A stretch of 31,583 nucleotides of DNA from a virus (Duplodnaviria; Heunggongvirae; Uroviricota; Caudoviricetes), in the IMG/VR virus record IMGVR_UViG_2802429219_000016; one strand, given 5' to 3'. Every line of letters begins with the position of its first letter. Positions within the stretch are counted from its first letter, which is position 1. Of the stretch, positions 6,552-27,155 are shown piece by piece. The position numbers and the translations under genes are program-made. A model generated the notes under the pieces. It was given only the letters and a program-made list of their open reading frames with translations. It was not told the origin of the DNA and searched no databases.

Positions 6552-6864
6552 TGCTGATTTAATGGCTGCAACCTTAATTTCCAGTGGCATGTCAGAACAA
6601 AAGGTAAATGATTTCCTGGATAATGTCGTATACCAGCACTATGAGCAGGCCAGAGAAAATTTAATTTCAGAAAAGCGCACGATGATTGCTGAATCATTAA
6701 GCCCTGCATGGATTATCGAAGAGTTGCGGGGAATCATTGCCAGTCAGGATAAAGTGGCGGCAGTTGCCGCCCTCGATGTGCTACAGCGAATGAGTAAAGA
6801 GTTATTCAACACTGAATTAATTTTTAAATCCGGGGGACATAATGAGCCGCACATCCCTGATTAA
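6529..6864 (+). CDS. Hypothetical early protein (111 aa)
   Basis: ORF with GAGG RBS; no recognised domain. Confidence 0.45.
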   Translation: MKIQMITDADLMAATLISSGMSEQKVNDFLDNVVYQHYEQARENLISEKRTMIAESLSPAWIIEELRGIIASQDKVAAVAALDVLQRMSKELFNTELIFKSGGHNEPHIPD

Positions 6865-7393
6865 ATTAATTCATGTTGCCCGTCGGGAGTTGCAACTCGA
6901 CGATGACACTTACCGAGCTTTTCTGGTGCAGTGCACGGGCAAAACCAGTTGCCGCGAGCTGTCCGTTGCACAACTGGAACAGGTGCTCGATGCCATGAAA
7001 GAGCGCGGTTTTAAAAAGCAGAAAAAACATCCCCGCCGTCGCTTTAAGGGGCATGTCACACCACGCGAGAAGATTTACAAAATCTGGCAGCAGATGTTTC
7101 TTGACGGTTTCGTCTCCGATATCAGCGACGCTGCGCTGGACAAATACGTTGAGCGCCTGACAGCCAGACGTAATGGCGGACAGGGTGTTTCCACGCTGGC
7201 ATGGTGTCACGGGGAATCGTTGCAGATTGTGCTCGAAACGCTCAAACAGTGGCATATGCGCTGCATCCGGGAAGCCTTTGCCCGACATGGCGTGCCTTTA
7301 CCTGTGAGCGAAACCGGGCGGGAGCTGCGCGGCTATGATGCACTGACCAGTGCATATGCCCGCGCACGAAACAGCGGGAGAATTGCTGTATGA
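6842..7393 (+). CDS. gemA: GemA-like (Mu gp16 family) protein (183 aa)
   Basis: Position immediately upstream of and overlapping mor; size and basic composition consistent with Mu GemA/gp16 family (recollection). Confidence 0.65.
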   Translation: MSRTSLIKLIHVARRELQLDDDTYRAFLVQCTGKTSCRELSVAQLEQVLDAMKERGFKKQKKHPRRRFKGHVTPREKIYKIWQQMFLDGFVSDISDAALDKYVERLTARRNGGQGVSTLAWCHGESLQIVLETLKQWHMRCIREAFARHGVPLPVSETGRELRGYDALTSAYARARNSGRIAV

Positions 7394-7839
7394 AACAGAT
7401 GAAAGAGCAGGATTTGTTCGAAGACCTTCGGGACGACAGCGTTCTGGAATATCTTCATGATTACCAGGAAAACACCGCTTATCCGGCGTTACTTTCTGAA
7501 CTGAACGCACTGCTGCGTAAAGAGCTGGCCCGGATTGGAGCAGACCCTGCCCATTCCCTTGAGCTGGTTGTGGCGATTTGTCGCCATATCGGCGGGATGC
7601 AGGTTTATGTTCCGAGGGGGAATATTCTGGAGAATCTTGTCCGGGATATGCGTATCTGGCGTGATTTTAACGGCCATAATATTCCTGAACTGGTTCAGCG
7701 TTACGGGGTGACGTATAAAACCGTCTACAAGGCCATCAAACGGATGCGACGTCTGGAGCGTAATAAATACCAGCCGGATTTGTTTTACCCCTCCCCGAAC
7801 CTGCCTCACCCCGTTCGTCGCCCACCACGACGCCCTTAA
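7390..7839 (+). CDS. mor: Mor/C-family transcription activator (149 aa)
   Basis: DLFEDLRDDSVLEYL...ALLSELN.LLR.ELARIGADPAHSLELVVAICRHIGGMQVYVPRG...RDMRIW.DFNG.N..EL..RYGVTYKTVYKAIKRMRRL closely parallels Mu Mor including the C-terminal HTH. Confidence 0.8.
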   Translation: MKQMKEQDLFEDLRDDSVLEYLHDYQENTAYPALLSELNALLRKELARIGADPAHSLELVVAICRHIGGMQVYVPRGNILENLVRDMRIWRDFNGHNIPELVQRYGVTYKTVYKAIKRMRRLERNKYQPDLFYPSPNLPHPVRRPPRRP

Positions 7840-7844
7840 TCAAT

Positions 7845-7869
7845 GAAGCCGGTAAATCCGGCTTTTTTT
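7845..7869 (+). terminator. Intrinsic terminator-like hairpin plus T7 run downstream of mor
   Basis: GAAGCCGG-TAAAT-CCGGCTTTTTTT: 6-8 bp GC stem, 5-nt loop, seven T. Part of a 40-bp element repeated at 15561-15600. Confidence 0.5.
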
Positions 7870-7924
7870 ATGCCTCCGGCACCATGAAGCAGACCACGTT
7901 TAAATCTGCTTCACAGGTGCTTTT

Positions 7925-8521
7925 ATGGAAAATCAAAAATTCTCCCCGGCCTTTGAACATGCGCTGAATTTTATTCTGCGTCCTGATATCGAAGGCGGCT
8001 ATGTCAATGACCCCACTGACAGCGGCGGCGAAACAAAATACGGCATTTCTGACCGCCGCGACGGTGTGATTGACGGCAAAACCGATGTCAACGGCGACGG
8101 CAAACCGGATACCCGCATTAAGGATTTGACCCGCGAACAGGTTGCGCAGATTTACTGGCGCGATTACTGGCTGCTTGCCGGGTGTGATCAGTGGCCTGAT
8201 GGTGTGGCGCTCTTTGTGTTTGATGCGGCTGTTCAGCATGGCGTGGAGCAAGCCGTCAAGTTTTTACAGGAAGCCGCTGATGTGTCTGCCGATGGCATCA
8301 TCGGCCCGCGTACCCGCAAGGCTGTGAGCCTGTCCACCCCGGACTGGCTGCTGTCCCGCTGCATTGTTCGCCGTTGCCGCTTTTATGCGGGCCTCATCAA
8401 ATCAAAACCCGCTCGTGGCAAATACCTGAACGGCTGGTTTAACCGCATGGAAGAACTGACCGACGCCTGTCTGGAAATTATCGATACCCCTCTGGGCATC
8501 ATGTCCGCCACGCGGGGGTGA
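7925..8521 (+). CDS. Endolysin, GH108-type lysozyme with C-terminal peptidoglycan-binding region (198 aa)
   Basis: EGGYVNDPTDSGGETKYGIS catalytic motif typical of GH108; C-terminal ADGIIGPRTRKAV fits PG-binding domain; no N-terminal TM segment, so apparently not a SAR endolysin. Confidence 0.75.
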   Translation: MENQKFSPAFEHALNFILRPDIEGGYVNDPTDSGGETKYGISDRRDGVIDGKTDVNGDGKPDTRIKDLTREQVAQIYWRDYWLLAGCDQWPDGVALFVFDAAVQHGVEQAVKFLQEAADVSADGIIGPRTRKAVSLSTPDWLLSRCIVRRCRFYAGLIKSKPARGKYLNGWFNRMEELTDACLEIIDTPLGIMSATRG

Positions 8522-8522
8522 T

Positions 8523-8750
8523 ATGGGCAAAGGCTGGGATGCCTCACTGAAAGCCGGGCGGCGTGACCGCCTGCGCCAGGAGGTTCTGCACCGCATGGCC
8601 GGAGGTCCGCCCCCGAAACCGCTGGACTATACCGGCCATGATGGCACACACGCCAGCTACTACATGCGTGGCTGGAACTCCGTGGATACACGGGACATTT
8701 TCTGGCAGTGCCAGAAGTACAAGGAAAAACTCAATGCACAGAATGAATAG
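8523..8750 (+). CDS. Hypothetical protein in lysis module (75 aa)
   Basis: ATG 2 nt after endolysin stop; no recognised domain. Confidence 0.4.
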   Translation: MGKGWDASLKAGRRDRLRQEVLHRMAGGPPPKPLDYTGHDGTHASYYMRGWNSVDTRDIFWQCQKYKEKLNAQNE

Positions 8751-10849: not shown

Positions 10850-10986
10850 AAAGAATCCGATAAGTAAAGCGTCCCGTGATGAACTCCGCCGTCTGGCGCA
10901 CAACCTGACATGGCGGGAAATCCAGAGCGGCGCACTGAAATCTGCATACGAAAGTTTACAGCGTAGTGAGCAACAGGAGGGCACAC

Positions 10987-11568: not shown

Positions 11569-13100
11569 CACAAATGGACACGTTCAGTGAATATGATGTT
11601 CTGCTGCCGTATCAGAAACGCTGGGTGGCGGATGATGCCGACCTGAAAATCGCCGAGAAATCCCGCCGTACCGGTTTAACCTGGGCGGAGGCGGCAGATG
11701 CAGCACTGACAGCATCGCTGAAGAAGGAAGACGGCGGGCGCGATCACTTTTATATCGGTTCGAATAAGGAGATGGCCCGCGAATTTATCGACGCTGTGGC
11801 GATGTGGGCGAAAGCGTTTAATGCGGCAGCGGAAGAAATCTGCGAGGAAGTGATCACCGACGAAGACAAGGACATTCTGACGTTCGTCGTGTACTTCGCC
11901 AGCGGTTTTAAGGTCAAGGCACTGTCCAGCAACCCGAGCAACATTCGCGGGATGCAGGGGAATGTCACCATCGACGAGGCCGCGTTCCATGAAAAACTGG
12001 ACGAGCTGCTGAAGGCGGTGCTGCCGCTGAAAACATGGGGCGGCAAAATTCGCCTTATTTCCACCCATGACGGCGTGGACAACCTGTTTAACCAGCTGAT
12101 TCAGGAAAGCCGCGCGGGCAAAAAAGATTACAGCATTCACACCATCACGCTGGACGACGCCTGCAATGACGGGCTGTACCGACGTATCTGTCAGGTGCGC
12201 GGCATGGTGTGGTCACCGGAAGCCGAGGCGGAATGGAAAGAAGGCCTGCTGCGAAATACCGCCACCCGCGAAGACGCGCTGGAGGAGTATTACTGCGTCC
12301 CGAAAAACGGCGGCGGCACGTATATCCGCCGCTCACTGCGTGAACGTGCGGCCCGTGGCACCGGGAAAGTGTTGCGCTTTACCGGCACACCGGAATTTAA
12401 CGCACTGACGGAAAGCCAGCGTCGGGCAGATATCCGGGAATGGCTGGAAACAGTGGTGCGCCCTGAACTGGAAAAACTCCCGAAGAACCTGCGCCACTGT
12501 CTGGGGGAAGACTTTGCGCGTTCGGGTGACCTGACCGTACTGGCCCCGGTGACGGTGAACGATGACACCACCCGCGAGGTGCCGTTCCTGGTTGAGCTTG
12601 GCAATGTGCCGTTTAAACAGCAGGAGCAGGTGCTGTTCTGGCTTTGCGATCGTCTGCCCCGCCGTGACGGCATCAAAATGGATGCGCGGGGGAATGGTCA
12701 GTATCTGGCAGAACAGGCGGCAGAGCGGTACGGCGATGAAGTGGAACAGGTGATGCTGTCCGTGGCGTTTTACCGCGAAAACATGCCCCGTTTCCGTGCG
12801 GCGTTTGAAGATGATGAGCTGATCCTTCCGAAGCATGAAGACGTGATCAATGACCTCGGGGCCATTCAGTTACTGCGTGGCGTTCCCGGCATTGATGATT
12901 CACGAACCAGAGGCAGCGACGGTCACAAACGTCACGGCGACGCCGCTGTGGCCATTTTCCTGGGCTTCCTTGCCAGTAAAGATGACTGCCACCGTTACGA
13001 ACTGCATCGCCTGAACCGCCCGGCGAAACCGGAAGAACGCAACGCGCGCCGCCAGCTGAAGCTGACACGCGGCCTGAAAAATGAGGGAGGTTTACTGTGA
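11565..13100 (+). CDS. Terminase large subunit (511 aa)
   Basis: Size, position before portal, and Mu gp28-like sequence character. Confidence 0.8.
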   Translation: MTQMDTFSEYDVLLPYQKRWVADDADLKIAEKSRRTGLTWAEAADAALTASLKKEDGGRDHFYIGSNKEMAREFIDAVAMWAKAFNAAAEEICEEVITDEDKDILTFVVYFASGFKVKALSSNPSNIRGMQGNVTIDEAAFHEKLDELLKAVLPLKTWGGKIRLISTHDGVDNLFNQLIQESRAGKKDYSIHTITLDDACNDGLYRRICQVRGMVWSPEAEAEWKEGLLRNTATREDALEEYYCVPKNGGGTYIRRSLRERAARGTGKVLRFTGTPEFNALTESQRRADIREWLETVVRPELEKLPKNLRHCLGEDFARSGDLTVLAPVTVNDDTTREVPFLVELGNVPFKQQEQVLFWLCDRLPRRDGIKMDARGNGQYLAEQAAERYGDEVEQVMLSVAFYRENMPRFRAAFEDDELILPKHEDVINDLGAIQLLRGVPGIDDSRTRGSDGHKRHGDAAVAIFLGFLASKDDCHRYELHRLNRPAKPEERNARRQLKLTRGLKNEGGLL

Positions 13101-14668
13101 ACCTGAAACAACTGGCCGGGGCCGTTCGCCATCTGCTGAACCCGGCAACCGGTGAGGAAGACACGCTGAAAAAAGAGGCGCTCAACGAAGCACAGGCCCG
13201 TCCGCGTCATGCCGGTGTGCGTTCGGCCTCGCCGGGTATCAGCGTCGCCTCCGGGCTGACCCCCGGCAGGCTGGCAGGCATTCTGCGCAATGCTACTGAC
13301 GGCATCACGCGTGATTTTTTTATCCTTGCTGAAGAGATGGAAGAACGCGATTTGCATTACGCCTCGGTACTGCGCACCCGCAAGCTGACGGTGGCGGGTA
13401 TCGAACCGGTGGTGGTGGCCGCCAGTGATGACGATGCTGACGTGCAACTGGCGGACGCCATCCGTGCACTGATGGAGGCACCGCAAATCCCTGAGCTGAT
13501 GTTTGATCTGCTCGACGGGCTGGGAAAAGGCGTGGCGGTCTGTGAAATTTTGTGGAACACCCGCAACAACCACTGGGTGCCCCGTGATTATGAGTGGGTT
13601 GATCCCCGTTTTCTGAAAGCCGAAAAGCCCACGCTGCGCCAGTTCCGCCTGCTGACAGACGATGAACCGGTGGATGGTGTACCGCTGACACCGGGAAAAT
13701 TCATTGTTCACCAGCCGCGCCTGAAATCCGGTTTGCCGCTGCGTAACGGTCTGGCCCGTCTGGTGGCGGTAATGTACATGCTGAAATCCTTTACCGTGCG
13801 CGACTGGTGGGCATTTGCGGAAAAATTCGGCATTCCGGTCACGGTGGGGAAATACGGTCCCAACGCCACGGAGGAACAAATCCGCGTGCTGATTGATGCG
13901 ATTGCGTCCATTGCCTCGGATGCCGGGTGTGCCATTCCGCAGTCCATGCAACTGGAGATGAAGGAAACCGCCAGCCGGAATAACGGCGGCGCACTGTTCC
14001 GTGAAATGGCGGAATGGTGTGATGCGCAAATCAGTAAAGCCGTGCTGGGGCAGACCATGACCACGGATAACGGCAGTTCGCGCTCACAGGCGGACGTGCA
14101 CAATCAGGTGCGTATGGACATTGTGCGCTGGGACGCGCGGCAGCTGGCTAACACGCTGAATGAATATCTGGTGCGCCCCTACATCGAGGCCAATTACGGG
14201 CCACAGGAACACTATCCCCGTGTTGTTCTGCGTATCAGTGAAGCAGAAGATCTGAAGGCGCTGACAGATGCTCTGGTGCCGCTGATTGACCGGGGGATGC
14301 GGGTTCAGGAATCGGAGCTGCGGGACCGGTTCGGCCTGGCTGAACCGGACGACGGGGCTGATGTTCTGCATCCGGTGTCTGCCGGAATGTCAGGTGATGT
14401 GGCGATGAACCGCGAGCGCGTCGCCCTGAACCGGGAACACCCCGATGAACTGGCACAGATGGTGGATGATGCCCTGCGTGACTGGCAGAAAACCGGCGAG
14501 GCGTTCACGAACCCGGTGCTGACACTGGCGCAGGAATGCGACAGTTTTGATGACTTTCTGAAACGCCTGCCTGAGCTTCAGGAAACGCTGAACGCGGACG
14601 ACTTTGCCCTGCAACTGGCGGAGGTGTGCTTTAAGGCGCGTGCGCTGGGGGACACCGGTCATGCGTGA
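13097..14668 (+). CDS. H: Portal protein, Mu gp29 (H) family (523 aa)
   Basis: GTG start after GGGAGG RBS, overlaps terminase stop; size and order typical of Mu-like portal. Confidence 0.8.
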   Translation: MNLKQLAGAVRHLLNPATGEEDTLKKEALNEAQARPRHAGVRSASPGISVASGLTPGRLAGILRNATDGITRDFFILAEEMEERDLHYASVLRTRKLTVAGIEPVVVAASDDDADVQLADAIRALMEAPQIPELMFDLLDGLGKGVAVCEILWNTRNNHWVPRDYEWVDPRFLKAEKPTLRQFRLLTDDEPVDGVPLTPGKFIVHQPRLKSGLPLRNGLARLVAVMYMLKSFTVRDWWAFAEKFGIPVTVGKYGPNATEEQIRVLIDAIASIASDAGCAIPQSMQLEMKETASRNNGGALFREMAEWCDAQISKAVLGQTMTTDNGSSRSQADVHNQVRMDIVRWDARQLANTLNEYLVRPYIEANYGPQEHYPRVVLRISEAEDLKALTDALVPLIDRGMRVQESELRDRFGLAEPDDGADVLHPVSAGMSGDVAMNRERVALNREHPDELAQMVDDALRDWQKTGEAFTNPVLTLAQECDSFDDFLKRLPELQETLNADDFALQLAEVCFKARALGDTGHA

Positions 14669-15425
14669 AACTCTCATCCCGAAAGAGGCGCTGGCGTGGC
14701 TGAAGGCGAAGAAGCTGCGCCCCGGTTTTGATTACCGGGATGTGTGGCGGGAAGAGCACCGGAACAGCTTCACCGTGGCAAAAATGCTGCAACTGGATTT
14801 GTTGTCGGATGTGAAAGCCCTTGTGGAAGACGCCCTGCAAAGCGGGCAGACGTTCAGCGAGTTCCGGGAGGCGCTGCAACCGCTGCTGATAAAACGCGGA
14901 TGGTGGGGCGTACAGGAGATGGATGATCCGCTGACGGGCGAAACCCGCACCGTGCAACTGGGCAGCGACCGCCGCCTCCGCACGATTTTTGATACCAACA
15001 TGCGCACCGCCCGCGCGGCGGGCCAGTGGGAACGCATTCAGCGGACAAAGCGGGCCATGCCGTATCTGATTTATGAGCTGGGGCCATCCCGCGACCACCG
15101 GGCGGAGCATGTGAAATGGGCGCGTCTGTGTCTGCCGGTAGATCATCCGTTCTGGCAGACACATTTTGCCCCTAACGGCTGGGGCTGCAAATGCACCATC
15201 CGTCAGGTCAGCCGTGGTGAGTATGCGCAACTGGCGGCACAGGGCACCATTCACACCGAAGCGCCGGAAATCAGAACCGTCCGCTGGGTGAATAAACGCA
15301 CGGGCGAAGAGGAAGATGTGCCGGAAGGGATTGATCCGGGCTGGAACTACAATCCCGGCATAAACCGTGAGCAGGAGCTGGCGCGCCAGCTGGCGACAAA
15401 ACAGGCCCGTTTTGACAGTGAGTAA
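14661..15425 (+). CDS. F: Head morphogenesis protein, Mu F (gp30) family (254 aa)
   Basis: Follows portal with overlapping start; size and order match the Mu F family. Confidence 0.75.
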   Translation: MRETLIPKEALAWLKAKKLRPGFDYRDVWREEHRNSFTVAKMLQLDLLSDVKALVEDALQSGQTFSEFREALQPLLIKRGWWGVQEMDDPLTGETRTVQLGSDRRLRTIFDTNMRTARAAGQWERIQRTKRAMPYLIYELGPSRDHRAEHVKWARLCLPVDHPFWQTHFAPNGWGCKCTIRQVSRGEYAQLAAQGTIHTEAPEIRTVRWVNKRTGEEEDVPEGIDPGWNYNPGINREQELARQLATKQARFDSE

Positions 15426-15448
15426 CCCTCCCGCCGTAAGTCCCCCTG

Positions 15449-15472
15449 AAACGCATCAGAAACGCGTTTTTT
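15449..15472 (+). terminator. Candidate intrinsic terminator after F
   Basis: AAACGC-loop-GCGTTT stem followed by TTTTTT (15467-15472). Confidence 0.35.
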
Positions 15473-15564
15473 ATTCTGATGGCGTGAATGTGCATTCTGA
15501 CGTTTTTGAAGATGCTGTGGCGTTTTTGAAGGGGTTTTGAAGGGGGTATTTCCCCGTTTTCAGT

Positions 15565-15589
15565 GAAGCCGGTAAATCCGGCTTTTTTT
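15565..15589 (+). terminator. Second copy of the GAAGCCGG-TAAAT-CCGGCTTTTTTT hairpin/T-run element
   Basis: Identical hairpin and T7 run to 7845-7869; the 40-bp blocks 7841-7880 and 15561-15600 are 36/40 identical. Confidence 0.5.
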
Positions 15590-15638
15590 CTGCCTTCCGC
15601 ATACTGACCGTCGGTAACCCCAAACGACGGAGACTGAC

Positions 15639-16601
15639 ATGCAACCGGAACTGCTGGCGCTGTGTTTTTCCCTGCCAGAACCCATCCCTGAGCTGACACC
15701 TGCTCAACTGCCGGAATGGCTTGAACTCGTCCCTGCGGGTGAGTTCACCGGGCGCGATGGCCGGACGTGGATTAACCGCAATCCGCATGAGGTGGTCACC
15801 CGCTCGTCCGACATCAAAATTCCGGTGGACATTGAACACGCCACCGAAATTAAAGGGCAACGCGGTGATGAAGCCCCGGCGTATGGCTGGGTGGAAGAAC
15901 TGCGCGTGACGGACAGCGGCACCATTGAAGGCCGTGTTGTCTGGAGCGAGTACGCCCGGTGGATGCTGAGCGAACGCCGTTACCGCTATTACAGCCCGGC
16001 GTTTTTCTTTGACGCAGACGGTGTGGTGACGCGCCTGTCCAGCGTCGGGCTGACCAACAAACCTAACCTGGACTTTCCTGCACTGAATACGGAGAAAAAC
16101 CCGATGACAGTACCTGTGCAAATCACCGGCCTGCTTGGGCTGGCTGAATCTGCCACGGTGGACGATACCGTGGCCGCCATTAAACAACTTCAGGAGAACG
16201 AACAGGTGGCGCTGAACCGTGCACAGACACCTGACCTGACGAAGTTTGTACCGGTGGAAACCCACAATCTGGCACTGAACCGTGCCGAAACCGCAGAACA
16301 ACGCCTTCAGCAACTGGAAGAGAAGGAAGCAGAGGCGCTTGTGGATGCGGCCATCGAGGCCGGAAAAGTGGCCCCGGCCAACCGTGACATGTTCCTTGCC
16401 ACCTGCCGCACGGAAGAAGGCCGCAAACAGTTTGCGGAATACACCAAAGGTGCACAGCCGCTGGTGAACAACGACAAGCCCAGCCAGGGCAAGGATAAAC
16501 CCGCGCAGACACTGACCGACGCCGAACTGGCGATGTGCCGCAGCATGGGTATTACCGGGGAAGAGTTCCTCGCCGCTAAACCGAAACAGGAGAATAACTG
16601 A
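15639..16601 (+). CDS. I: Head maturation protease / scaffold, Mu I (gp32) family (320 aa)
   Basis: Position immediately before the major head gene; C-terminal coiled-coil scaffold-like region (LQQLEEKEAEALVDAAIEAGK). Confidence 0.75.
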   Translation: MQPELLALCFSLPEPIPELTPAQLPEWLELVPAGEFTGRDGRTWINRNPHEVVTRSSDIKIPVDIEHATEIKGQRGDEAPAYGWVEELRVTDSGTIEGRVVWSEYARWMLSERRYRYYSPAFFFDADGVVTRLSSVGLTNKPNLDFPALNTEKNPMTVPVQITGLLGLAESATVDDTVAAIKQLQENEQVALNRAQTPDLTKFVPVETHNLALNRAETAEQRLQQLEEKEAEALVDAAIEAGKVAPANRDMFLATCRTEEGRKQFAEYTKGAQPLVNNDKPSQGKDKPAQTLTDAELAMCRSMGITGEEFLAAKPKQENN

Positions 16602-25109: not shown

Positions 25110-26179
25110 TGGAATCCGTGATTCTTACCGTTGACGGCAAATTGTGGGAGGGCTGGACGGAAATGTCCGTCAGCCGTTCCCTGAAGGCGATTGCCGGTGA
25201 GTTTGATCTCAGTGTGACAACCCGCTGGTCGGCAGCAGCACCGCGCGTGATTCGTGAGGGGCAACCCTGCACGGTCAGGCTGGGCGCGGATACCGTGCTG
25301 ACGGGGTATATCGATGATTTTATTCCCAGCTATGACGCAGATAACGTGGAGATTCGCGTCATGGGGCGCGACAAAACCGGCGACCTGGTTGACTGCTCTG
25401 TGGTGCATTCGTCCGGGAAATGGAAAGGCGTGCGGCTTGAACAGGTGGCGGCTGATGTCTGCCGCCCGTTCGGGATAACCGTCATCACGGAAACCCCAAC
25501 CGGGGAGGCGTTTGCGTCCGTCGTTCTGGAACAGGGTGAAACGGGGTTTGAACTGCTCGACCGGCTGGCAAAACAGCGCGGCGTTCTGCTGACGTCTGAC
25601 GGCGCGGGTAACCTGATTATCACCCGCGCCTCTTCCGTTCGCGCGGGTGTGTCACTGGTGCTGGGGAAAAATATCCTCGCTGCCCGTGGACGCTTCAGCT
25701 GGCGGGAGCGTAACAGCCAGTACATCATCAAAGGCACTACCAGTGCCGGTGGCAAACTGTGGGACAGCCAGCCTGCCACGATGGTGGGTGGTCGTCAGTA
25801 CATCACCGAAGACCCGGAAATTAACCGTTACCGCCCGCGCATTCTGGTCAATGAAGACAGCCTGACCGTGGGCGGGGCCAGCATTCGCGGGGAATGGTAC
25901 AAAGCCCGGATGCTGGGGGAATCCCGCACGACGGAAATCACGGTGGCAGGCTGGCGCGAACAGGGCGACAGCGGCCCGCTGTGGCAGACCAACCGCCTTG
26001 TCGATATCGACGACAGCATTCAGAACCTGAAAACCACTTGGCTGATATCCGGGGTGACCTGGACGGATGGCGCACAGGGGCGGATGACGGTTCTGGCGCT
26101 GGTTCCGCCTGAATCACTGGACATGCCGGAAATGAAAGCGAAGACGAAGAAAACAAAGGCGGTGGCCACATGGGATTAA
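25109..26179 (+). CDS. P: Baseplate hub/tail protein, Mu P family (356 aa)
   Basis: Position and size; overlapping start/stop with neighbours. Confidence 0.75.
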   Translation: MESVILTVDGKLWEGWTEMSVSRSLKAIAGEFDLSVTTRWSAAAPRVIREGQPCTVRLGADTVLTGYIDDFIPSYDADNVEIRVMGRDKTGDLVDCSVVHSSGKWKGVRLEQVAADVCRPFGITVITETPTGEAFASVVLEQGETGFELLDRLAKQRGVLLTSDGAGNLIITRASSVRAGVSLVLGKNILAARGRFSWRERNSQYIIKGTTSAGGKLWDSQPATMVGGRQYITEDPEINRYRPRILVNEDSLTVGGASIRGEWYKARMLGESRTTEITVAGWREQGDSGPLWQTNRLVDIDDSIQNLKTTWLISGVTWTDGAQGRMTVLALVPPESLDMPEMKAKTKKTKAVATWD

Positions 26180-26706
26180 ACGCCATTGCCCGCCGTCTGC
26201 GGTTGATGGTTGACCGTGCCATTGTCCGCATGGTGTCTGACAGTCTGGAGCGGCAGAACCTGCAAATCCAGACGCTGGCAGATGCCACCGACGACGACGT
26301 GGAGCGCTTCCAGAACTACGGTTTTACATCCGTGCCGCCGGAAGGTTCTGAAGCCATAGTGCTGGCCGTTAGCGGGCGGCGTGACGGGCTGGTTGCCATC
26401 GCGGTGGAGGATAAGCGATGTCGCCCGAAAGGGCTGTCCCCCGGCGACGTCCGGCTGTATCACCAGGACGGCAAATCACACATCACCCTGAAGGAAGGCG
26501 GCATCATTGAAATCACAGGAGAACAATTAGACTTTTCAGGGAAAGCGGTAAATCTCACTGCCGACGAATTGCTGAATATCATCAGCGGACAAATGAAATT
26601 CGTCGGCCCCTGTGATTTTACTGAAGACATCACCATCAACGGCAAATCTTTCAGCGAACATATTCATAAGGACGGCGACAATGAGAATACATCACCGCCC
26701 GTATGA
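26170..26706 (+). CDS. Baseplate spike/assembly protein (gpV-like, Mu gp45) (178 aa)
   Basis: Position in baseplate block; size typical of gpV-like spike. Confidence 0.7.
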   Translation: MGLNAIARRLRLMVDRAIVRMVSDSLERQNLQIQTLADATDDDVERFQNYGFTSVPPEGSEAIVLAVSGRRDGLVAIAVEDKRCRPKGLSPGDVRLYHQDGKSHITLKEGGIIEITGEQLDFSGKAVNLTADELLNIISGQMKFVGPCDFTEDITINGKSFSEHIHKDGDNENTSPPV

Positions 26707-27155
26707 CGACAGGAATCCGCTGGAATAACATGCTCTCACGGGGTGACATCACCGTCACCCATAACGGCCTCTCACTGGATGAGGGGCTGGTCACTCAGGT
26801 TCTTATCTGCCTTTTCACCGATGCCCGTGCTGATGACGATGATGTCATTCCTGACGGCTCTGGCGACCCGCGCGGCTGGCCGGGCGACACGTACAGCGAT
26901 TTTTCGTGGGGTTCCCGCCTGTGGCTGCTTGAGCGTGAAAAGCTGACGGAAGATGTCCGCCTGCGTGTGGAAGATTACGCGCGGCTGTCCATGCAACCGC
27001 TGCTGCGGGCCGGTTACGCCCGTAACGCCACCGTCACGGCCAGAATCATCGTCCCTGACCGTATTGCCTTTCAGGTGGTGTTAACCCGCCCGGACAAAAC
27101 CACGCTCACAATTGAAATCACCCGCCGATGGGAGGCCACCATTAATGCCGTATGA
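26703..27155 (+). CDS. Baseplate wedge protein (gpW/gp25-like, Mu gp46) (150 aa)
   Basis: Position and size. Confidence 0.7.
   Translation: MTTGIRWNNMLSRGDITVTHNGLSLDEGLVTQVLICLFTDARADDDDVIPDGSGDPRGWPGDTYSDFSWGSRLWLLEREKLTEDVRLRVEDYARLSMQPLLRAGYARNATVTARIIVPDRIAFQVVLTRPDKTTLTIEITRRWEATINAV

Follow-up and report, generated by a model that had tools for sequence, protein, structure and literature searches.

A repeated hairpin element before the lysis and head operons of a Mu-like prophage as a predicted Mor-dependent promoter of the Pm type overlapping a likely intrinsic terminator

Introduction

In bacteriophage Mu, a short middle operon with C as its last gene is transcribed from the Mor-activated middle promoter Pm, and C in turn activates four late promoters. 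The end of Mu early transcription lies within Pm, at about 9.2 kb. The Mor site of Pm is composed of two 5-bp inverted repeats flanking a G/C-rich 6-bp spacer; it is centered at -43.5 and spans -51 to -36, with a G at -57 and an A at -54 (PMC4390567; PMC4287176). The bases just downstream of this dyad were reported to be needed for promoter function (PMC2582627). Here, we describe a hairpin element with a T-run that occurs twice in a 31,583-nt stretch of DNA from a Mu-like prophage (IMG/VR record IMGVR_UViG_2802429219_000016, Caudoviricetes; the whole stretch is referred to as the window), once before the lysis operon (copy 1) and once before the head operon (copy 2).

Comparison with Mu and with related prophages suggests, at a probability of roughly 0.68, that both copies act as sigma-70 late promoters of the Mu Pm type that depend on Mor and overlap an intrinsic terminator. 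The promoter part of this explanation is considered very likely and the terminator part likely. A Pm-type Mor promoter with a nested terminator is already known, and the established picture of Mor/C regulation is not overturned by this locus. What is added is its predicted use as the late promoter set of a lineage that encodes Mor only, the near-exact duplicate before gene I in the lineage of the window, and a third, internal site.

Collinearity with the Mu middle promoter

The core of the element is a 25-mer, GAAGCCGGTAAATCCGGCTTTTTTT, of which the window holds two exact copies on the + strand (Table 1) and no further copy at up to three mismatches (0 expected, 100 shuffles). The copies are part of the longest high-identity direct repeat of the window, a 42/49 (86%) ungapped match between 7833-7881 and 15553-15601, and reading of the blocks 7841-7880 and 15561-15600 confirmed the 36/40 identity reported for them in the first-pass annotation of this DNA. 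The Mu record AF083977 contains, directly after mor, the stretch AGTAAAGCCGGTTAATCCGGCTTTTTTTACGTCCTCAATATCCTG, which is labeled as the Mor-activated middle promoter Pm with a TransTermHP terminator inside. Both copies can be aligned to this stretch without gaps, as AATGAAGCCGGTAAATCCGGCTTTTTTTATGCCTCCGGCACCATG (copy 1) and AGTGAAGCCGGTAAATCCGGCTTTTTTTCTGCCTTCCGCATACTG (copy 2), and CCGGC plus T7 is common to all three.

As the published positions are satisfied only by a +1 at Mu 9224, the Mu Mor site is read as AGTAA-AGCCGG-TTAAT and the -10 hexamer as TATCCT, located 38 bp from the start of the box. The corresponding 16-bp imperfect dyads of the window are AATGA-AGCCGG-TAAAT in copy 1 and AGTGA-AGCCGG-TAAAT in copy 2, each followed by a -10-like hexamer (Table 1). 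From these Mu-aligned box and hexamer positions, the 5' arm of the hairpin would correspond to the G/C-rich spacer of the activator site, the loop to its downstream A/T half-site, the 3' arm to the -35 region and the T-run to the promoter spacer. In copy 1, the right arm and T-run accordingly coincide with the -35 and spacer region of the predicted promoter. No sigma-70 promoter with a -35 element was predicted at either copy, and no alternative promoter was predicted for lys or I.

Several other candidates for parts of this arrangement were rejected. A dyad centered on the loop TAAAT, the center of the palindrome, is incompatible with the published Mu positions, which fit only AGTAA-AGCCGG-TTAAT; for the same reason the activator box is taken to comprise the 5' arm and the loop and not the whole palindrome. 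The sequence TTTAAAT at 7900-7906 was dismissed as an alternative -10 because it is not conserved in relatives and is wrongly spaced to the box. Weaker motif matches at 11810 (GAAAGCGTTTAAT), 10561 and 5462 are located within coding sequence and have no -10 at the right offset; in distant relatives they are missing or accounted for by protein conservation.

Copy 1 is located between a gene order of GemA (6842-7393) and the Mor-family activator on its 5' side and the GH108 endolysin gene (lys) on its 3' side. Directly after the endolysin gene, a homolog of Mu gp18 was found at 8523-8750, with 70% identity over 8523-8729. Because the Mor gene ends 3 nt before box 1, as in Mu, and the gp18 homolog is found downstream, copy 1 can be regarded as the positional ortholog of Pm. 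Copy 2 follows the portal gene (13097-14668) and a Mu-F-like gene (14604-15425) and precedes the gene for the I protease/scaffold and that for the major head protein T. The placement of the copies before the lysis and head operons, which the first-pass annotation had claimed, agrees with these gene assignments. Its distances to the operon starts (about 70 and 63 bp) have to be corrected slightly: the ATG is separated from the end of the T-run by 56 nt (lys) or 50 nt (I), and from the first hairpin base by 80 nt (lys) or 74 nt (I).

At the RNA level, each copy is predicted to form an 8-bp stem with five G-C pairs and a 5-nt loop, directly abutting a U-tract encoded by T7 (-12.6 kcal/mol; fold z -3.77 for copy 1 and -4.17 for copy 2). 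Such a stable, GC-rich stem-loop is the form of an intrinsic terminator, and a terminator scan gave a match at both copies. The hairpins lie on the transcribed strand at the 3' ends of transcription units, with copy 1 starting 6 nt past the Mor stop codon and copy 2 starting 140 nt past the F stop codon, and no T-run is present on the strand opposite the two hairpins. A search of the window against Rfam returned no match.

Taken together, these features suggest the following model, in which the binding of Mor, the points where transcription starts and how efficiently it terminates are predictions drawn from homology and fold. At the DNA level, the single Mor ortholog would bind the two 16-bp boxes, centered near -43.5, stand in for the missing -35 contact and bring host RNA polymerase to the weak -10 hexamers CACCAT and CATACT. 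Transcription of the lysis and packaging genes would then start near 7892 and that of the head operon near 15612, and the third box with its own -10 (26538-26582; see below) would do likewise for the baseplate and fiber genes. In RNA arriving from upstream, the same stretch would fold into the 8-bp hairpin followed by U7, so that transcription of the early operon would end at copy 1 and that of the lysis/packaging/portal operon at copy 2. As the hairpin would stop incoming transcription, the downstream genes would depend on Mor-activated initiation and not on read-through. The organization of Mu is alike in that separate late transcripts are made and terminators are predicted before Plys and PI (AF083977).

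Conservation among close relatives

Related sequences were taken from 60 IMG/VR loci encoding a Mor protein 61-100% identical to that of the window. The set was completed by Klebsiella phage Kp4866-3, E. coli chromosomes and four other Enterobacterales genomes; E. coli STEC388 (NZ_CP041425) shows 95.5% identity to positions 7300-8600 of the window. When viral contigs were scanned with a profile for more distant Mor relatives, every protein returned was at least 61% identical. At the site before lys, which is covered by 60 sequences (50 of them unique), GAAGCCGG-TWAAT-CCGGC followed by T7-9 is unchanged in every one. In the unique set, the box holds 1.88 bits per position and the right arm with the T-run 2.0 bits, against 0.30 bits in the upstream flank, which is unrelated among relatives. 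Before gene I (39 unique sequences), the values are 1.68 bits for the box, 1.42 for the right arm and 1.20 for the T-run. The full hairpin and T-run is found there in the lineage of the window and some others; in many other lineages its place is taken by forms like AGGGAAAGCGGTTAATCCACTTTCTTCT, whose hairpins are weaker (-5 to -9 kcal/mol) and which lack a T-run.

In the 60 related loci, the hexamer is always xAxxxT at fixed spacing at both sites. The lysis-promoter hexamers are CACCAT, CAAAAT, CACTAT, CACACT, CACAAT and TAAATT; those of the head promoter are CATACT, GACACT and CACACT, with A, A, C, T and the next G invariant in alignment A2. In the lineages with a decayed hairpin before gene I, the box-to-hexamer spacing is 39 and not 38 bp (alignment A2, column 41), and 39 bp is also the spacing at the third site and at the Vibrio and Shewanella sites described below.

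Being invariant in sequence in all relatives, copy 1 is uninformative on whether structure or sequence is conserved. At site 2, the stem is 79.6% paired in 29 aligned sequences, and compensatory changes were identified at two pairs (G-C to A-U in 9 sequences and C-G to G-C in 13). One stem pair is broken in 11 of the 29 sequences, and independent compensatory events are few.

The sequence 5' of copy 1 is mosaic across relatives, but in every case the element has remained with the operon that follows it. Some relatives in E. coli, for example, have a 166-amino-acid hypothetical gene between Mor and the element (chromosomes L009, 9998-10495, and L010, 8995-9492), and the element still adjoins lys. 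Among 185,579 species genomes, the exact 25-mer was found in seven stretches, six of which adjoin homologs of Mor, lys, F or I. The remaining one is located at 930-954 of the contig CAYXTW010000023.1 of a metagenome-assembled genome (labeled Ignavibacteriaceae), with no homolog of Mor, lys, F or I in the 3.7 kb covered; it looks like an ordinary terminator with the same stem and loop, or like part of a mis-binned contig. An invariant core with diverging flanks in one gene context differs from the many unrelated contexts, or the lack of constraint, of a dispersed repeat, mobile element or scar.

A third site inside a baseplate gene

Relaxed scanning of the window identified a third activator box, located within a baseplate gene (26170-26706) and followed by a -10-like hexamer (Table 1); neither a hairpin nor a T-run is present at this site. 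The window contains three occurrences of the motif GAANNCGGTWAAT, each on the + strand, compared with 0.04 expected. This motif was refined after the third site had been seen and is hence partly post hoc, and the site was then tested independently. In a codon alignment of 39 unique homologs of the baseplate gene, the box is kept as A GGG AAR NCG GTW AAT, with a middle codon that encodes A, T, R, S or K. The glycine codon of the box is GGG in 15 of 16 diverse representatives and shows the lowest synonymous variability of the 31 conserved four-fold codons in the gene; the valine codon, which is only GTA or GTT, ranks fourth. The third box is thus under DNA-level constraint within a gene. Hexamers such as TATTAT and CATTAT occupy the -10 position in relatives, and a lineage-specific box is also located at this genome position in Kp4866-3 and in the Vibrio and Shewanella phages.

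Conservation of the activator box together with the -10 hexamer extends to all three positions in about 60 relatives, so that these two parts can be considered the common denominator of the sites. The hairpin with its T-run does not vary at the early/late boundary, varies at site 2 and is missing at site 3, and therefore appears to reflect a constraint separate from activator binding.

Rebuilt hairpins in Vibrio and Shewanella phages

More distant cases were drawn from a phage collection. The Mor proteins of Vibrio phage 1.028.O and Shewanella phage MuM16-2 are 34% and about 34% identical, respectively, to that of the window. In Vibrio 1.028.O, the sequence AGCAACCGACGTTATTT occurs exactly twice, compared with 0.08 expected. 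The copy in the F-I spacer forms the 5' arm and loop of the hairpin GCAACCGACG-ttatttct-CGTCGGTTGC, which is followed by T9 (-23.9 kcal/mol), with CATTCT at +39. The second copy is located inside the gp45-like baseplate gene, with TATTAT at +39. Before the lysis genes of this phage, no convincing box was identified, the only candidate being a three-mismatch match on the opposite strand with the wrong spacing.

MuM16-2 carries the AGCAACCGACGTTATTT box at three places. In its F-I spacer, the box is part of a hairpin followed by T7 (-15.2 kcal/mol), with CATGCT at +39, and in its gp45-like gene the box is accompanied by TATCAT at +39; the third place, before the lysozyme gene, is considered below. 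The same genome positions thus appear to carry a box that changes with the activator, and the hairpin appears to be rebuilt round the different box. Of the sequence comparisons, it is this pattern that argues most strongly for a functional arrangement and for selection acting on the hairpin as a structure.

Evaluation of alternative explanations

It could be argued that the element is a promoter only, in which the hairpin and T-run represent -35 and spacer DNA that is kept for its shape or for polymerase contacts and causes little or no termination. Bases right after the Mor dyad of Mu are critical for activation (PMC2582627), the T-run is located at about -29 to -23 in all Pm-type copies, and the Shewanella site before the lysozyme gene has no hairpin and works, if at all, without one. 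However, many site-2 and site-3 sequences keep only box and hexamer, in many lineages, which indicates that the promoter architecture has no need of the right arm or T-run. In addition, the site-2 stem pairs with compensatory changes, the hairpin and T-run is rebuilt round another box sequence in Vibrio and Shewanella, and the fold is that of a textbook intrinsic terminator whose Mu equivalent is called by TransTermHP. A promoter with little or no termination is considered unlikely. The converse, that the copies are ordinary Rho-independent terminators duplicated by recombination and that late transcription comes from elsewhere, by read-through or antitermination, agrees with the canonical hairpin and T7 at the 3' ends of the Mor and F genes and with the plain-terminator look of the same 25-mer in an unrelated metagenomic contig. 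It is difficult to reconcile with the near-identity to the experimentally defined Mu Pm Mor site including the -10 spacing, with the conserved xAxxxT hexamers 38-39 bp downstream, and with the retention of the 5' half both where the hairpin has decayed and at the third site inside a gene; nor is another promoter predicted for lys or I. This possibility is regarded as very improbable.

Even less credence is given to the view that the repeat has no function and was left behind when two intergenic regions underwent module exchange or gene conversion; a module-exchange scar had also been raised in the first-pass annotation. Relatives indeed have wholly different sequences 5' of copy 1, including extra genes that separate Mor from the element, and in the lineage of the window copy 2 looks as if it had been copied from copy 1, with the other lineages having diverged. 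The core, however, is invariant across phages with Mor proteins 61-100% identical, compared with flanks at 0.3 bits per position; the same three-site architecture is found with a different box in distant phages; and in Enterobacterales the exact 25-mer is confined to this prophage context. A scar is not needed to account for the locus: the 5' mosaic is real, but the element stays with its downstream operon under strong purifying selection. The other suggestion made there, a combined terminator and activator-dependent promoter module, gains support from the collinearity with Pm, the conservation of box and hexamer, and the hairpin-free third site.

The following observations weigh against this combined promoter and terminator. 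The hexamers are weak and begin with C, with CACCAT matching only 3/6 of TATAAT. The T-run before gene I has been lost in many relatives, and the invariance of the right arm and T-run of copy 1 may partly reflect promoter needs, since in Mu the bases 3' of the dyad are needed. In MuM16-2, the box before the lysozyme gene (CACAAT at +39) has no hairpin, which indicates that termination at the early/lysis boundary is not universal. Finally, the third site is located in a coding region, and its motif definition is the partly post hoc one.

Table 1. Coordinates of the predicted promoter and terminator elements, leader hairpins and adjoining genes in the window.
Feature	Position	Strand	Details
Mor/C-family activator, 149 aa	7390-7839	+	PF08765 Mor, E 3.6e-30; PHROG 532, late transcriptional activator
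Mor box 1 (predicted), AATGAAGCCGGTAAAT	7842-7857	+	13/16 identical to Mu Pm site AGTAAAGCCGGTTAAT; starts 3 nt past Mor stop, as in Mu
Hairpin + T7, copy 1	7845-7869	+	stems 7845-7852/7858-7865, loop TAAAT; predicted early-operon intrinsic terminator
-10-like hexamer CACCAT, predicted lysis promoter	7880-7885	+	38 bp from box start, as in Mu; predicted +1 near 7892-7893
lys leader hairpin (predicted)	7880-7919	+	core 7885-7893/7905-7913, outer CACC 7880-7883/GGUG 7916-7919; -16.0 kcal/mol, z -2.9
GH108 endolysin (lys)	7925-8521	+	PF05838 and PF09374; first gene 3' of copy 1
Mor box 2 (predicted), AGTGAAGCCGGTAAAT	15562-15577	+	14/16 identical to Mu Pm Mor site
Hairpin + T7, copy 2	15565-15589	+	predicted terminator of lysis/packaging/portal operon; overlaps predicted head-operon promoter
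-10-like hexamer CATACT, predicted head-operon promoter	15600-15605	+	38 bp from box start; predicted +1 near 15612-15613
Gene I leader hairpin (predicted), CCGTCG/CGACGG	15608-15630 (wider 15604-15634)	+	between -10 and Shine-Dalgarno; -9.7 kcal/mol, z -2.0
Mu I-type protease/scaffold	15639-16601	+	PF10123, E 1.9e-44; PHROG 328; first gene 3' of copy 2
Third activator box (predicted), AGGGAAAGCGGTAAAT	26538-26553	+	relaxed scanning; within baseplate gene 26170-26706, 5' of wedge gene 26703-27155
-10-like hexamer TATCAT of third box	26577-26582	+	39 bp from box start

Leader hairpins straddling the predicted start sites

Each copy is followed by a second hairpin, and the leader hairpins placed at 7886-7912 and 15608-15630 in the first-pass annotation are present in fold predictions. 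The one before lys extends from the -10 hexamer to the lys Shine-Dalgarno sequence. Across relatives, the leader hairpins are kept as structures with unrelated stems, in 17 lys clusters (mean z -2.1) and 8 I clusters (mean z -3.4). All of these start inside the hexamer or at most 3 nt past it and end at or on the Shine-Dalgarno sequence; pairing between CAC(C) in the hexamer and (G)GUG in the Shine-Dalgarno sequence is seen in 9 of the 17 lys clusters. If +1 is set as in Mu Pm, the 5' arm of the leader hairpin is located at about -6 to +4. Because this arm lies at or upstream of the predicted start, the hairpin would form only in read-through RNA (-5 to -22 kcal/mol) and not in promoter-initiated RNA (0 to -7.5 kcal/mol). 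The same geometry is found in Mu Pm relative to the mapped start (CCTGTGATGA...TCATCATGGG, AF083977 9214-9251, -14.9 kcal/mol).

These observations allow the tentative suggestion that the element might belong to an insulation cassette of two layers, shared by Mu Pm and the Mu-like phages of Vibrio and Shewanella, in which a nested terminator, as one half, is combined with a hairpin that forms only upon read-through and blocks translation. If this were true, translation of the lysis and head genes would be restricted to Mor-initiated transcripts, even with leaky termination. A parallel exists in IS10/Tn10, where fold-back inhibits read-through transcripts. The leader hairpins are alike in having the 5' arm at or upstream of the predicted start and the 3' arm over the ribosome binding site; they differ in that they precede a phage late operon and not a transposase gene, and in that the start sites are placed by homology to Mu Pm.

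In three relatives (L062 at 10940-10975, L063 and L064), the lys leader contains a second dyad, ACCGGATTAACCGGT, which is similar to the box core (CCGG-TTAAT-CCGG) and is picked up by the motif on the minus strand.

A probable single activator in place of a Mor-C cascade

The 149-amino-acid protein of the Mor/C family encoded at 7390-7839 shows 63% identity to Mu Mor and 32% to Mu C. An activator of this family is therefore encoded on the same prophage as the boxes, and its gene is the last before the lysis operon. A tblastn search with Mu Mor and Mu C as queries identified no second Mor/C gene in the 31.6-kb window. In the phage collection, two Mor/C places per genome were found in Mu, D108, SfMu and Yersinia Mu phages, and one place in Kp4866-3 and in Vibrio, Shewanella, Pasteurella and Burkholderia Mu-like phages. 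As many Mu-like phages of the collection have one Mor/C place, a single activator can be considered common.

The C step thus appears to be missing in this phage, and the Pm-type promoter would face the lysis and packaging genes directly. With the Mu gp18 homolog located directly after the endolysin gene, the lysis operon resembles the Mu middle operon with the endolysin gene added and C removed.

The Mor-like protein also contains DLF near its N terminus and QPDLF near its C terminus (residues 7-10 and 127-131), which match the beta-clamp-binding motifs that a recent study reported in Mor/C proteins (PMC12867686). In addition, the protein carries a 17-residue proline/arginine-rich tail (YPSPNLPHPVRRPPRRP) that is missing from Mu Mor.

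Comparison with known systems

The closest described system is Mu Pm, with which the locus shares boxes identical at 13-14 of 16 positions, CCGGC plus T7, a -10-like hexamer at 38 bp, and a box starting 3 nt past the Mor stop codon. The activator is 63% identical, and downstream lies a homolog of gp18, the gene with which the Mu middle operon begins. In contrast to Mu, where Pm leads by way of the middle operon to C, the prophage encodes no C, and its Pm-type promoter would directly drive the endolysin and packaging genes. Pm-type boxes are also present before gene I and inside the baseplate gene, and the -10 hexamers of the two copies start with C whereas that of Mu starts with T.

With the late promoters of Mu, the sites would have in common a -10 without a -35, a 16-bp imperfect dyad centered near -43.5 and a distribution over several late units (PMC2582627), as well as one promoter inside a tail or baseplate gene (PP in Mu; AF083977). 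This internal promoter would be located in a gp45-like gene here, but is in N in Mu. Furthermore, the boxes of the prophage are of the Mor type with an AGCCGG core, whereas the C type is TTAT-N5-6-ATAA (PMC12867686), and the predicted terminators of Mu adjoin Plys and PI without overlapping the activator site. Ordinary Rho-independent terminators resemble the two copies in the GC-rich 8-bp stem, the 5-nt loop, the U7, the predicted stability of -12.6 kcal/mol and the location on the coding strand at the end of a unit. They differ in that the hairpin is nested here in a putative promoter, with the 5' arm and loop corresponding to the activator site and the 3' arm and U-tract to the -35 and spacer region of the next operon.

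If the proposed arrangement is correct, late genes would be timed by one activator and not by a Mor-then-C cascade in a group of Mu-like prophages that is widespread and is found in E. coli, Klebsiella, Raoultella, Kluyvera and Serratia, and the three promoters with their defined box would constitute a testable regulon. Since the activator would replace the -35 contact, the -35 and spacer DNA would become available for the 3' arm and U-tract of a terminator, so that one 45-bp stretch could both close one operon and open the next. For annotation, this implies that such hairpins in Mu-like prophages should not be labeled as plain terminators.

Other features of the F-I spacer

The F-I spacer 5' of copy 2 (15426-15560) contains several additional features. 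A weak hairpin followed by T6 is located at 15448-15473 (-6.2 kcal/mol), and three direct repeats were identified further downstream (CGTTTTTGAAG at 15501-15511 and 15521-15531, and GGTTTTGAAG at 15533-15542). A GGGGGTATTTCCCC hairpin is present at 15542-15555. The equivalent G-I spacer of Mu holds a strong gyrase site (AF083977 17879-17880).

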